Assembly: GCA_951406725.2 (NCBI GenBank)
Contig: OX597817.1
Location: 27,776,001-27,840,000 of the forward strand
Source: Octopus vulgaris
Taxonomy: Eukaryota
Direction: 5' to 3'
DNA: 64,000 nucleotides
Below are positions 11,775-48,400 of this stretch, piece by piece. The translations under genes were made by a program, and so were the position numbers. The notes under the pieces are model-generated. The model was not told the origin of the DNA, did not search any database, and saw nothing but the letters and a program-made list of their open reading frames with translations. How positions within the stretch are numbered: the stretch's first letter is position 1; each line of letters opens with the position of its first letter.

Positions 11775-14110
11775 TATTCGAGTACAAACCAGCACTGTTG
11801 AACTTTCTTTCTGTAATAAATACACATACCTACGTCCAGGTATTTATAGCTTCAATGTTATTCTGTCCGTTTAATTTCGACTTACGGATCAGTCTCAGTC
11901 CGCGCAAGTACTCCATCTTCAATTTTTCTTATCCCCCAGTACTTATAGGCCGTATCTTCCTTATGCATCACAACCTCACCCGACGGTATCGTTATCCCGT
12001 CCATACATTTGATTTTGCCTCTCTTCAAGACTAATACATCCCAATTTTTCAGTCCAAACTCCATTCTGATATCAACACTGAAAGTATACACCGTATCAAC
12101 GTGGGAACTGACTTGGGATTCATCTCTACCATTAAGTTTGAGGTTATCCATGAATAACAAGTGGATGACATTTTGTTGGCGGCTCTTGAATACATACCCA
12201 ACTTTTACTATCCACAGAATCAGTGTTAGTGGTATCAGGCACAGTAAAAAGATCAGTGGAGACAGGCAGTCCCCTTGGAAGATGCCTCTCCTGATTTCTA
12301 TTGTCCCTAAACTTCTTTCATATGCTGCCAGTTCCGTCCTCTACATCACCATACTTTTTTATAGCAATCTCTCAACATTCGATGCAATACAAATAGGTTC
12401 ATACATTCCATAATCCAAGAATGTGGGATCATATCGTATGCCTTACGATAATCTATCCATGACTTGACTAAGTTAGTTTACCTTCTCTTGCATTCTCCAA
12501 GTTCAGTTTTGCCTACCAAGAGTTGATCCTTGGTACCTCTGCAGTTATGCTTGCAACCCTTCTACTCATGTGGCAGGACCGCATTTTCTTCCAGATGTCC
12601 GTGCATTGACTCTGCGACTATTCCAGTCAATAATTTCCACATAAGTGGCAAGGAGGATATCACCCTGTAATTGTCTACCGTATTACCTTTTTCGATGTTT
12701 TTCAAGCACAGCACTGTCGTATTTGTTGTCAACCACTCTGTTGTTACTTGGTCGGCATTTAACAAGGTGTTGAGTTGTGCAGCTATTCGTGCATGAAATT
12801 TACGAAATATTTTGCTCCAGTAGCCTTAAATTCTACTTAGCCCCGGGGCTTTCCAGTTGCCCATTTTTTCTGATTTCTTTCACTACCCTAATTGAAATGA
12901 CTAGTTCTCCCCTTTTCGAACAGACTTCTGTTTGCTTCACTTCTTGCAACCATTCAGCATCCTTCTTGTGCTCCTTGTCTTTGCTCCATATGTCACTCAA
13001 AAAGCTTTGACTTTCAGTGTTATCTGGCATCAACTTTTCATCTTTACACTCTCCATTTATTTCTTTGTAGAACCTCTTCTGATCTACTCTGAATAAGCCA
13101 TTCTGCTAGTAACACTTCATTGTTTGGTCATATCTTACCATCATTGCTTTCGTTGCAACGAGGCGATGTTTTACTTCCTCCATTACCACTTTCAGGCCCC
13201 TTTTATTTTTCAGTATCATACTCTGTTCAGGGCCCTGTATTTTTTTTCGCTTTTAAGCTCCCCTTTTCTTTTCGGTGTAACACAGAAATGTCTTTCGAGA
13301 GCACATCTGAACCTATCTGTATTTTTCTCCCTAACCGAGGATCTTTTCTTTTGTCACTCCCATTATATTTCTTTTTCTTCACATCAACACTCACGTTTTA
13401 TGCTACAATAACACTTGCTGCCTTGATCAAATTATTTGTTTCTGTGATGTTCTTTGTTCTGATGTATTTCAGAATTTCATTCACATTTCGTTTCTTGTTT
13501 CGATTTCCGATCAACCTTTTTAAGGATGTAAATAATGTCGATATCGTTCTCCTGTAGCCTTGCCTTTATTCTGTCGTAGATTGCCTTTTGCCCATCTGTC
13601 ATGTCACCATTAGTTTTATTGTCTTTTTCCAAACCATCTATATGTCTCTCATCGAGCAAGCTATCACTGTTCTTTCCTGTGGTTTATTAGAGATCTCAAT
13701 CTCTGTTTCCTGCTATGGGATTACTTTTATCAGTAGGAACTGCTGTTTCATCGTTTCCTCTGCTGCTGTTTTCCAATACCCGTGTTTTGATAGCCTCTCA
13801 CTCTAATTCTGTGAACTAACGGGTTTTTTTATTGCCCTAGCTCGATCACATAATGTCTGTTCCGTGAGATGAAAGAATCCTGTTTTTCTCCATTGATCAT
13901 ACATACATTGTCGGTATCCCCTAATATGAACGCCATTTTCGTCTACAGGTTGGTCAGGTAATTACGCTCCATATACACAGTATTGACTTGTTCGATCCAT
14001 CTACGCCGTGTGTGCTGGTTTCTTGCTGGATATCGACAGGCAGGACTCGGACCAGAATCTCTGAGCCTGCCGGGTGCAACACTGTCACAATCAAGGTCTT
14101 CAGTTTCATT
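11775..14110 (-). pseudogene. R4/Dong-type non-LTR retrotransposon, N-terminus through RT, frameshifted
   Basis: RT motifs NYRVISSLPLMWKLLTGI, RRGIFQGDCLSPLIF, LLFMDNLKL, DIRMEFGLK and YKYWGI, with many stops and frameshifts; (TAA)n lies upstream on this strand. Confidence 0.93.
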
Positions 14111-29340: not shown

Positions 29341-30393
29341 GGGATGCAGGAGATAAATAAACAGTTGGTACAGTGAAATATATAAAGCCATCAGTATATA
29401 TATATATATATATATATATAAAACTAGATACATAGATAGGTTTTTAAGGAGGGGAGAAATAGCGATAGGAAACATAATAGAGTGAGCAAAGTTCTTTATT
29501 CTATGGAAATAGGAAGAAGCAAGAAGATATAAAATACGTACAGAATATTTTAAAATTATGGAGGAATACATGGAGCGTAAGTAATTTAAACTCCACGGCA
29601 ACTACAAAAGATTGAAATTGGAAATTTCTAACCTTTAAACTGAGATATGAAAGTGATATTCAAGATAGGATAAGTAGAATCTTTAGAAAAAAGGAAGAAA
29701 TGATCGCATTATTTTTCTTTGCTCCTTACGTCTTGGGTTCAAATTACGCTTGGTCTCAGTTGGTGTTTCATGCTTCCTGGACCGATAAATATGGTATTAT
29801 GCAAGTGATATAGCTGATATAATCGAAAGTACACTTCACTCTGGTTTTTAAGTCCATGTTCCTATTTTAGGAACGATTATTAAAAGAATATGATATTTGT
29901 ATATCGGACGCCAGATGTGTTGATATGTTTATGAGATGGATCTTCGTCACTTTCAGCGATGGAGATTCAGTTATTTCATCAACGCACTTATACATACACA
30001 CACATCTATTCACTCGTATATATAACACATACACACACATACGCTTTAAAACCACAAATTTTTCACTATTAAAATACACACGGAGAATGCAATGAATATA
30101 ACAGAAATAGGCTTACCTTGTATGAACTGCAGAAATAAGGCTTACAGATATTCTGGAATGAACTGATTACGCGTTTTGGAGGAATATACTTAAAGCTCTT
30201 CAGCCAGACTTACTGTAAATCACATTATTTACATTATTTACATTGGACGGATATCTGTTCTCTTCTTGTTTGTAGTTAACACAACGTTTCATCAGATGTT
30301 TTGGGGAAATTTCGAACCTACGTTAACAACAAACAAGATGAGGACAAAGATCCGTTAAATGTAAGTAATTCATCATCTCTTAAATATAGAACT

Positions 30394-44399: not shown

Positions 44400-44841
44400 G
44401 AGGCTGTCAGAAAGAAATAAAACTAGAACTGAAGTTTTTGACTTATATCCCTGAGATGTATATCTACTTCAAATATTTAAAACTGTTCAGCATTATAGAT
44501 GAAGATGTCATGTGGTGTGTATGTGTAACAATGTCAGACACTATGTCAACACATTGTTTCATTTCACTTCCTGTTGATTTTATTTTATTTTATATTTTTT
44601 ATAGTATTATTTTTTTGTACCTATCCAGTCTCCAGAGAAGACATGATAAATCAAATTTAGTAGATTTTTCTCTTGTTGATTTGCTTCAATGAATAGCTGG
44701 ATAAATAGAGGTCCACTCCTTAACATGCACACAAGGGTTTAATACAGTTCTGTATTTAAGAGATGAGGAATTATGTACATTATTTACACTATTTACATTA
44801 TTTCCATTTGACGGTTATTTGTCCTCATCTTGTTTGTTGTT

Positions 44842-44887
44842 AACACAAAGTTTCGGCTGATATACCATCCAGCCTTCGTCAGGTGTC
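44842..44887 (-). ncRNA. minimal type I hammerhead ribozyme
   Basis: GACAC-CUGACGA-A-GGCUG-gaugguauau-CAGCC-GAAA-CUUU-GUGUU; the stem III palindrome has one substitution. Confidence 0.75.
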
Positions 44888-44919
44888 TTGGGGGAATTTC
44901 TAATCTGGGTTCTCATTCC

Positions 44920-44998
<79 letters not shown>

Positions 44999-45106
44999 GT
45001 TGTTGTTGTTTTATTAATATTATTGTTATTTTATCATTATTATTATTATTATAATTATTATTATTATTATTGTTTTATTATTATTATTGTTTTATTATTA
45101 TTATTG

Positions 45107-45205
<99 letters not shown>

Positions 45206-45267
45206 CCAGGTCACTGCCTGGAATCGGACTCTGAATCTTGGGGTTAGTAGCCCGCGCTCTTAACCAC

Positions 45268-45342
45268 GGGCATATGGTGCAGTGGTTAAGAGTGCGGACT
45301 AATAACCCCAAGATTCCGAGTTCGATTCCCAGCAGTGACCTG
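45268..45342 (+). promoter_or_regulatory. tRNA-derived head with Pol III A and B boxes
   Basis: A box TGGTGCAGTGG and B box GAGTTCGATTCC at tRNA spacing; the acceptor stem is poor, so this is not a tRNA gene. Confidence 0.8.
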
Positions 45343-45429
45343 AACAATAATAATAATAATAATAATAACAACAACAACAACATTGAAAAATACCTTAGGA
45401 ATGAGAACCCAGGTTCGAAATTTACTCAA

Positions 45430-45475
45430 GACACCTGATGAAGGCTGAAGGGTATATCAGCCGAAACGTTGTGTT
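45430..45475 (+). ncRNA. minimal type I hammerhead ribozyme
   Basis: GACAC-CUGAUGA-A-GGCUGA-aggguaua-UCAGCC-GAA-ACGU-U-GUGUU; intact core with palindromic ACGU stem III. Confidence 0.85.
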
Positions 45476-48400
45476 ACCAAAAAACAAGATGAGGACAAAT
45501 ATCCGTCAAATGTAAATAATATAAATAATGAAGTGTTTAATTTCACAATCAATCGGGAATACAGTAAACGTTAGCGGGATTTAGAATGTGTTGAAAATTA
45601 AAATTTTTCCTCGTTAATTTTAATGTTTTTGTGTACATATAGCTTACTATGGAAAGAAGAAGACGTAGAATTATAAACAAATATAAAGGGGGTTCGAACG
45701 ATGTGAAACACACAGCGGTTGTTGAATCTAGTTTGCAACAGAGAATCAGTATGTAACTGTAGTTACTTAACTAAATCTGTTAATGTACTCCAGAAGACTA
45801 GAACCCGAAGACTTCACTTATTCCATCGTCTGATTTCAGTGGAAATGATCACCTAGTGTTAGATACCTTCCATAATATTAAATGAAGCTTAGGAAAGCAC
45901 TAGAGTTTAAGGAAAGTTAATGAAGGTGACTGAATTGAAAAAGGTTAAGTAAAGAAGAAATAAATACAACGTGTACAAATGTATGTAGACCATGTAAAAA
46001 GTACTTGTAGAAAAGGAAGAAGTATAAAAGCCCAAGCGGCATGAACACATGAACACACGAACACGTGTGCATGAACACATGAATAGATAGATGGACACAA
46101 GTGGTGTGACTCTTGTGTCCATCTGGTTATATCAATTCCGTGGCTTAATATTTCAAAATTGTTTCTTTACCCAGCATTTAGTTTTCTCAAGTAACAGAAG
46201 TATACGAAGAAAAGCACGACTGCGTGGGGGTGTTTAGCACGGATGAATTAAAATAACTTTTAAAGAAATATAATTTAGAAATTATGCATTGAAAGATTTC
46301 CTTTACTCAAAAAAGTTTAGTTTGACAAAATTTTCGAATTTCAGCATTATTTCATAGTTGCAATTTCAAAGATGAATCATTCATTTCAGCGGCTTTGATA
46401 ATTTACGAATATCCGCTTCAGAACACTTCAAGTAGTGAAATCTCACTTAAAATCATTACGCAAACATAACTTATTCCGAATACAGAGATTTTACGGATTT
46501 CCTACTTGAGTAGTTATTTTACATAGTTCCATAGCAGTAGTGTAGTACCTAATTAGTTATATTCATGTGGCTGAATGGAATTAGCTAATGTATGTATTGA
46601 TTTGTAAAATATTGCTAAAATACAAAGTATAACAAGCTAGTTTGTTTTTTTTTTGGGTTATTTTTTCATTTTTGTTTACTTTTATTTTTTTAGAAAATTG
46701 AGTTGATACTATTTCAAATATGAGATCTAAAGAATTGCTTTCTTGATTCTCTAAGCTTTGTATTTCCTTTTAAGGATATAATAGAAACTTTTCAATTCAG
46801 AAAACTTCCTAACGAAATATATATTTTAACTGCATCTTTTTTTTTTTATTTTGCCATAAACTTACCAACCTTACAATGTTTACTTTAATCTTTTGATGTT
46901 TGGTATTTATTGATATATTTTGTTGTCCTTTTTTTTCTTTTTTTTTAATTTAATTTTTAAAAGCTTCCAACATATACATTGGACTTTGATATATTGTTAA
47001 ACATCATATTTAATATATTGCCGAACTTATGTTTTGTGCAACAATATCAACAACCTTTAGATGTTCAACAGTTTTTTAATATCTCGGAATATTTTCCTGT
47101 TGGGATTTTTTTTTTCGTTAATAAAGAACAATATTACCTGTATACACATTCATGTTTTATCACTAAACTAAATAAAATTCTACTGCTCTTATTGTGGTTT
47201 ACATTCTGTTTTTTGTTTGCATTCATTTGTCTTCTTTTTGGTATTGTTTTAACATGGTTATATATTAAGTTCTCCAATAAATCGTAACGCTGAAATATTC
47301 TCATTGGTTTCACTTATCTGAGCTTTTGGTTAGTTTAGTACTTACGTATGTAAAACCAATGATGCGGTTGGTGTGTTTCCAGCTATTATCACTCGACGTA
47401 CAAGTAAAGCAAAATGTTTTATCGTATGGTGCGTGAAGTAACAAGCCATAGGTATCTTGCTATTAAACTTTATGTCATCTGAATTTGTAATCACTACTTT
47501 CGCTGAGTTCATTCTTGCAGTGTTTCACTTGATTTCTTCTCCTGTGACTACTAGTTTATGTTTGTTTTTATGTTTTGGTTAGCAATTAATTACCCATATA
47601 CAAATTAGCCGATTTGTCATGACGATCAGAACTTTCGCATCATTTCCTTTAGCGAACAATGTGTTTGCATAAAAAACGATTTATATTCAACTTATGTTGA
47701 TTTTGTTTATTTTGTTCAACGTTCCTCAAGCGTTTAATGACTTCACAAAATGGCGTTCAGACATGCATTATCATATTTTATTTGATTACTTCTGTTTGAA
47801 AACGACGTCATCTATACTCCACTAAATCTAATTGTCAGGATTTTAATTCACGTCCGATTATTCACCTTTGTTCCCAGCGGGTGTGCAGCCTTTTAGCAAA
47901 GTATATTTTGTTTTAACATTATATACGTATATCAATCAAACGAAATCTTCAAAAGAATGTTTAAGAATTAAAGTGGTTCATAGACATATAGGCTCTAGGC
48001 ATGCAGGCTCCGCATTTTAATGCACAATTAAATTATTTATAACAGAATAGCGGATAGAGGTTAAATGTCCTTTATCCTATTCAAGTTATAAATTTTCTTT
48101 TAATCTGAAATATCTTTTCAAAGACAGATCCAAGTCAAGAAATGGCTTCTACATTTTCTTTGAACTTACATTAAATATGGAAGCAGAACTCTCAAAATGT
48201 TTATTTGTATTATAGATTACCTTCAGCTATCAAAGAGGTTCTCCGGAGGTCTTCTTAAAACTCGAATCCAGATATGATTGTCTTCAGAAATAAAAGATTT
48301 TACGCTGTTTCTTCAAACAAGAAAAGATATGTGCTTATCCTACATATTGTCCAATGTGATGAATGTCTACGAACATCGAAAGATTGCTATATTTCTCTAC

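Follow-up and report, generated by a model that had tools for sequence, protein, structure and literature searches.

We have identified a repeat unit in Octopus vulgaris that is almost certainly the pseudo-long terminal repeat (pLTR) of a Penelope/Poseidon-type Penelope-like element (PLE). The unit was found as an inverted pair in a 64,000-nt stretch of contig OX597817.1 (assembly GCA_951406725.2, positions 27,776,001 to 27,840,000; hereafter the window). It consists of a transfer RNA (tRNA)-like head, an (AAT)n spacer and a segment with a minimal type I hammerhead ribozyme (HHR), and it recurs in an element whose open reading frame (ORF) encodes a reverse transcriptase (RT) and a GIY-YIG endonuclease (EN). 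We put the probability at roughly 60% that its copies arise by the following mechanism. RNA polymerase III (Pol III) would start an RNA ~6 nt before the head, at a tRNA-Arg-like promoter within the pLTR, and, meeting no run of four T (T4 run), would read on into the ORF. The GIY-YIG domain would cut both target strands about 11-15 nt apart; one target strand would prime at a proximal site in the RNA (site A) and the other at a distal one (site B), and both cDNAs would run ~250 nt to the RNA 5' end, where they would be joined head to head through fold-back or microhomology. The rarer ORF-bearing copies would come from long RNAs primed at their 3' pLTR.

Several observations identify the unit as a pLTR: the head stands behind the ORF stop, the HHR segment is in frame with the ORF N-terminus, and one locus (L140) is a classic partial tandem. 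A reading-frame end just upstream of the head was first seen in two tail-selected loci (L013 and L027), and a peptide from this end was used as a query, which gave 3307 candidates, of which 150 were scored and 30 loci fetched. About 30 nt past the ORF stop, the head was present in 28 and the HHR segment in 26 of 30 endonuclease-selected loci. Among 30 loci selected by the N-terminus, 25 carried the HHR segment contiguous and in frame with it (the first ~55 codons), and in L152 the frame stays open across 219 codons, beginning in the spacer and passing through the HHR. The element is ~2.56 kb long and is laid out as head-AAT-ATG/HHR-RT-GIY-YIG-stop-linker-head-AAT-HHR. DKG, YVDD and CSC..H..H motifs occur in that order in natural copies, RVT_1 was matched at 32.4 bits (cut-off 29.6), and PF26215 was found in all and PF00078 in most of 56 homologues. 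Pfam gave no GIY-YIG match in the element; the endonuclease is presumed to be of this type from its motifs and from the homologues. A full-length relative (P0004) is 53% identical over the RT-EN fragment and alike in the N-terminal motif over the HHR. The RT-EN linker of L153, P0002 and P0004 has no extra zinc finger of the kind seen in Neptune and Nematis, and the EN is not N-terminal as in Naiad. A partial-tandem pLTR, an inverted 5' copy and a 30-40-nt tail at one end (L140, L152 and 38 of 46 inverted pairs), the structural marks of Penelope/Poseidon, are shared, together with the order RT then GIY-YIG, with canonical EN+ PLEs as far as the published account describes them (PMC8557442). A search with the ORF N-terminus returned this family only. 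The 42 ORF segments differ on average by 5.6% from the commonest letter of each column. In one alignment the row of L187, which was in the wrong orientation, was disregarded. In eight loci (L257, L260, L265, L268, L272, L274, L277 and L280) the copy continues beyond the tail for ~200-260 nt of the ORF N-terminus before returning abruptly to a head or tail, as though RT had left the 5' end of one RNA for a second RNA; query selection accounts for part of this pattern.

The initial annotation had proposed a separate non-autonomous short interspersed element (SINE) in which a tRNA head was fused to a PLE-type tail and was mobilised by a PLE rather than a long interspersed element (LINE). The annotation was right that the mobiliser is a PLE and not a LINE, and the HHR segment is indeed shared by a PLE that has RT and GIY-YIG. 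The fusion is not supported: the whole unit, head included, lies in the ORF-bearing PLE, and the supposed tail of ~55-100 nt is the coding sequence with which the PLE ORF begins. Head and HHR occur together in 29 of 29 head-selected loci, a count that leaves out the window's own locus, and in 26 of 30 pattern-selected loci, as the annotation had expected; a chance nesting of head and tail is ruled out by these counts. Its description of a tRNA-like head, (AAT)n, minimal HHR and inverted partner was accurate, and the pair is composed as follows.

44733-44743, plus strand: left target-site duplication (TSD), 11 nt, one mismatch to the right copy
44744-44921, minus strand: minus arm, PLE ORF start with the HHR (ATG 44916-44914); its end at the 44744 side is the distal RT start site (site B) and carries a PLE 'tail' of ~40 nt
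44842-44887, minus strand: minimal type I HHR of the minus arm, core intact, stem III palindrome broken
44922-45206, minus strand: expanded (AAT)n spacer of the minus arm
45207-45267, minus strand: head positions 15-75 of the minus arm, most of the A box missing
45264-45267, plus strand: 4-nt microhomology between the arms, the plus-arm leader being head positions 15-18 on the other strand
45268-45345, plus strand: tRNA-Arg(ACG)-like head (A box 45275-45285, B box 45320-45329)
45346-45382, plus strand: (AAT/AAC)n spacer, the 5' untranslated region of the ORF in tandem copies
45383-45530, plus strand: plus arm, ORF start (ATG 45401-45403), ending at the proximal RT start site (site A)
45430-45475, plus strand: minimal type I HHR within the ORF, core and AACGTT palindrome intact, predicted cut after 45470
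45531-45541, plus strand: right TSD
45604-45608, plus strand: first run of at least four T past the plus head, in flanking DNA, the predicted end of a Pol III transcript from this copy

The 3' ends of 210 tail matches cluster at +119 to +132 (site A) and +149 to +163 (site B) from the ATG, and 38 of the 46 inverted pairs have one end at each site (p 5e-6). The pair in the window fits this pattern, with the plus arm ending at site A, the minus arm at site B, and the 4-nt microhomology at the join. Its arms are 85-89% alike. As originally described, the minus arm is short of about the first 14 nt of the head: it begins at head position 15 (45267) and runs to 44744. Priming at the two sites explains why the shorter-headed arm is the longer one at the 3' end. 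An origin of the minus arm as a fold-back copy of the plus arm is ruled out, since the minus arm extends 43 nt further 3'. The view that the pair entered as one insertion event was confirmed, and the 11-bp TSD invoked for it is a credible duplication, although not a perfect one: 10 of 11 positions match (44733-44743 against 45531-45541), and the longest exact repeat shared by the two flanks is 8 nt. It is still credible because 31 of the 46 inverted pairs have a TSD of at least 11 nt with at most one mismatch, against 1.4% for mismatched flank pairs. The pair was likely made by the element's own RT, and we infer priming on both target strands in this family. A second family insertion lies in the window at about 30222-30393; it is a headless inverted pair of ORF-start pieces in which the HHR is deleted or lost, its two ends again divided between site A and site B.

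A close parallel is the Poseidon PLE of Anolis carolinensis (PAc), whose published account describes an ORF that starts at the HHR and two RT starts within the ORF, 30-40 nt apart (PMC11167929). The PAc starts lie 111-118 nt in, and those of the octopus element at ~120-130 and 150-160. In PAc both target strands are cut and extended, at AT-rich targets as in the octopus family. The start site used in vitro was alike on both PAc strands, whereas 38 of 46 genomic octopus pairs have one of each, and the text consulted on PAc mentions no tRNA-like head (PMC11167929). The pairing of A and B ends over 46 insertions provides genomic evidence on the second-strand step of PLE insertion.

The head was aligned to 35 distinct tRNAs of the genome together with its Arg(ACG) genes, a set that holds part of the isotypes. 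It is closest to tRNA-Arg(ACG) (global score 63.8, against 57.9 for the next isotype), with a z of about 7 for Arg tRNAs against shuffles, and its first base aligns with tRNA position 1. The tRNA likeness rests on this alignment to the genome's own tRNAs; ARAGORN and Rfam did not call the head a tRNA, and Rfam at gathering and E-value thresholds returned hairpin and microsatellite noise, with no tRNA or hammerhead match. The A box of the plus head differs at two letters from the family's commonest. The sequence of the linker before the head is similar to that of the 5' part of the head, inverted and decayed, an indication that the head was acquired as an inverted product of this kind. An A/B-box pattern search of 79 metagenome loci, many of them without flanks and the result therefore weak, found no tRNA-like heads beside other PLEs, and relaxed ARAGORN settings gave scattered low-score matches on the same loci. 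No relative of the element was found on viral contigs. A tandem tRNA array with 23 matches to the tRNA-Arg(ACG) motif, all on one strand, lies at C2:211887730-211907120.

The copies have a sharp 5' boundary. Full heads were collected from sets not chosen by the ORF and having complete 5' ends (n=92, including the duplicates L169/L170 and L179/L181 and the window's own). Of these, 83 carry no more than 8 nt of matching linker upstream and stop within -8 to +1 of the head, 9 continue for at least 15 nt, and none lies between. In the least biased set, 25 of 31 heads end at the boundary. Random truncation at the average rate seen in the ORF, one per 381 nt, would place 2.3% of ends in any 9 nt. 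Among the matches listed, loose contig ends fall at head position -7 in three of four runs (three organisms) and at site B in four of four. The four runs consist of contigs, one set (X4) being possibly RNA, and their depths do not allow the parts of the element to be ranked. An RNA that begins about 13 nt ahead of the A box fits a Pol III promoter of the tRNA type, and transcription driven by Pol III from the head is what this boundary would suggest.

A Pol III transcript of the whole element would have to pass the ORF, and a T4 run is the Pol III stop signal. No run of at least four T was found on the sense strand in the 2556 columns of the 42 ORF segments, where 4.5 were expected (P about 0.01). 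Sixteen natural copies contained 14 T4 runs against 63 expected, and synonymous-codon shuffling of four open stretches gave an expectation of 4.3 against 2 observed. Four LINE families of the genome, used as controls, have 2-13 T4 runs each in shorter ORFs, and the median ratio of observed to expected T4 runs in 39 other PLE families is 1.25. T4 depletion is suggestive support for Pol III, not decisive. Pol III RNA would be uncapped, and the predicted HHR cut would fall 70 nt past the ATG; for these reasons the protein may come from rarer Pol II read-through, with Pol III supplying the template. The ORF stretches of two unrelated PLE families, L287 and L290, are also T4-free, and the L290 family strongly prefers TTC over TTT.

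Several observations weigh against the proposed mechanism. A T4-free ORF is not unique to this family, since 2 of the 39 other PLE families are without T4 runs, and the T4-free L287 has an ordinary T-rich pLTR and no head. Because the copies share one ancestor, the T4 counts amount to one observation and not 16. The letter preceding the B box is A, whereas the genome's tRNAs have G. The sole Penelope promoter mapped, that of Drosophila, is described as TATA-less and LINE-like (PMC2377424). No intact ORF occurred among the copies examined, the longest open stretch being 321 amino acids; 'autonomous' applies to the parent element, and all copies seen are broken. The HHR core is kept in 127, the palindrome in 90 and both in 67 of 193 HHR-spanning copies, a pattern that fits neutral decay at a CpG, as expected. 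Two columns (positions 124 and 39) differ in frequency between solo and ORF-linked copies, which we tentatively put down to a 9-nt repeat and to locus choice. Lastly, in the 4 copies folded, linker and head are predicted to pair into a hairpin of -10 to -16 kcal/mol whose apex falls on the boundary, and 31 of the 75 junctions resemble fold-backs; together these mean that a structural stop can mimic an RNA 5' end.

The main rival builds on this last point, and we regard it as unlikely. Here the tRNA head would be a passenger, Pol II would transcribe the PLE, and the short copies would lack their 5' parts because synthesis stopped or folded back where the linker-head hairpin has its apex. The predicted loop at -3 to +1 and the 31 fold-back-like junctions agree with it, as do heavy 5' truncation and inverted 5' copies, which are reported as general PLE traits (PMC8557442). 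Against it, 40 of the 75 junctions are neither fold-back nor linker and yet have the same end point, and few heads start at the 3' base of the hairpin (+9 to +18 in 6 of 34, compared with +1 to +3 in 24 of 34). The absence of T4 runs would also be left unexplained.

An independent non-autonomous SINE lineage, in which short master copies were amplified and the PLE supplied mobility in trans, is improbable. Short copies do greatly outnumber ORF copies (4 insertions and no ORF piece in 400 kb), most copies start at the head, and the plus arm has A and B boxes with a T-run 75 nt downstream. However, the head is present in the ORF-bearing element, no tail column out of 178 is specific to solo copies (among a few hundred selected copies), and the haplotypes T39-A108-G64 and A39-G108-A64 are both found in solo and in linker-joined copies. 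The 3' ends lie at two set positions and carry no inherited flank in the loci read, and the anole PLE is reported to need ORF sequence beyond the RT start sites (PMC11167929), which solo copies are without. The unit does have a tRNA-derived head with A and B boxes, as a SINE2 would. With that head in the coding element, it does not share its 3' end alone with an autonomous partner, as a SINE should. It is SINE-like in size and probable promoter but can best be regarded as made from the RNA of the parent element, with secondary amplification from solo copies possible. RNase P cleavage of a Pol II precursor at the tRNA-like head is very improbable as the source of the 5' end: the boundary does lie near tRNA position +1, but many ends retain a 3-7 nt leader (in part explicable by fold-back) and the window head has no cloverleaf fold (z +1.06) and is not called by ARAGORN.

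Under a Pol III start in the pLTR head, one wider proposal can be made, which we hold as tentative and rather doubtful. The full 2.6-kb template RNA of a coding retrotransposon would be made by Pol III from a captured tRNA promoter, the ORF would have been purged of Pol III terminators, and SINE-like offspring would be shed through priming at the RNA 5' end, amounting to the birth of a SINE inside its autonomous parent.

The minimal-HHR descriptor gave two matches in the window, which are the two arms, and none in 60 dinucleotide shuffles; Rfam calls no hammerhead. The plus-arm motif has the minimal PLE features (CUGANGA and GAAA core, helices I and II, a palindromic stem III remnant), with the cut predicted after GUU at 45470 as first proposed. 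In the minus-arm motif the core is intact but AACTTT replaces AACGTT. Single-strand folding of the HHR gave z values of -1.4 to -2.0, which is weak evidence, and the cofold minimum of two plus motifs was not the active dimer. No cis dimer is possible in the window because its HHRs are on opposite strands. The window motif matches the published minimal PLE hammerhead, and the octopus element shares with canonical PLEs, as far as described, the long helix II, the extra base after A9, the palindromic 15.2-16.2 and many dispersed solo HHRs (PMC4209133). Minimal PLE hammerheads are reported to cleave poorly and as dimers only (PMC4209133), and that of PAc to cleave only with protein, cleavage being dispensable for insertion (PMC11167929). 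Cleavage by the predicted HHR would require a dimer or the protein, and insertion can probably proceed without it. The unrelated PLE L287 has the same minimal HHR layout. Head-to-tail headless AAT plus HHR arrays of ~190-nt units occur at L045:355-1458 (six copies) and L029:1121-1645 (three copies), the sole arrangement seen that would permit a cis hammerhead dimer.

In 40 arbitrary 10-kb stretches (400 kb) we found 4 insertions, all inverted pairs. Extrapolated from these 4 to the genome searched (2.8 Gb, 227 contigs), this gives an estimate of ~28,000 insertions (95% range 7,600-72,000). Exact genome-wide counts, in line with the sharp 5' boundary, were 1827 for heads (25-nt pattern), 131 for heads with the linker 10-mer and 194 for heads with the fold-back 10-mer. 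The insertions are largely inverted repeats, and their co-transcription would provide double-stranded RNA. At L076, L173, L176, L177 and L178 the (AAT)n spacer is interrupted by other repeats; the spacer expands and drifts to other triplets, and the family seeds microsatellites and landing sites. Identical insertions occur at several places on contig C1 (L168, L169 and L170; L179 and L181), which points to segmental duplications.

To our knowledge, little promoter mapping has been done on PLEs, and Pol III is generally regarded as unsuited to coding retroelements. The octopus SINEs OK, OR1 and OR2, reported by Ohshima and Okada in 1994, are said to have tRNA-derived heads, of Arg origin in OR1 and OR2. 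OR2 is described as a CORE-SINE (PMC4758252, PMC5804259), and identity with it is ruled out on that description, since our unit has AAT alone between head and PLE ORF. Unlike canonical PLEs as described, the octopus element holds a complete tRNA-like A/B-box module and a microsatellite in its pLTR, and its truncation is non-random and piled up at the head. The Schistosoma repeats SM-alpha and Sj-alpha likewise place a Pol III-type promoter before a hammerhead in one repeat, but are described as non-coding and tandem, with HHRs shown to cleave (PMC6765202); the octopus HHR is minimal and inside an ORF, and the promoter-like head belongs to an ORF-bearing element. Retrozymes are also among the nearest described systems (PMC7761336); the octopus unit is an ORF start found mostly in inverted pairs, which sets it apart from non-LTR retrozymes and SM-alpha-type repeats, in which non-coding HHR repeats lie head to tail and give rise to circular RNA. 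TRIMp3 elements (Cassandra, Helenus, Ajax) similarly have a Pol III promoter derived from a small RNA within the terminal repeat, but are non-autonomous LTR elements, whereas the octopus coding element carries the head itself; their autonomous partners are argued to need Pol II and to be unlikely to share such LTR sequence (PMC10886601).

No PLE with a tRNA-derived promoter in its pLTR was found in the literature consulted; Repbase, Dfam, SINEBase and the supplements of PLE papers lay outside the search, and an entry for the family may already exist, perhaps under a SINE label. In an octopus repeat annotation from 2026, with 190 PLE families listed, 'ribozyme' and 'hammerhead' are absent from the main text and 'hammerhead' from the supplement (PMC13282606). 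A PLE with a tRNA promoter in the pLTR would make Pol III use by coding retroelements testable, and it suggests a possible route to SINEs and to HHR repeats of the SM-alpha kind that involves no fusion. Part of the annotated tRNA-SINE content of such genomes may be PLE ends. Elsewhere in the window, an open frame at 11885-12340 on the minus strand encodes what is, judged by a motif, a putative RT-like peptide of another retroelement.

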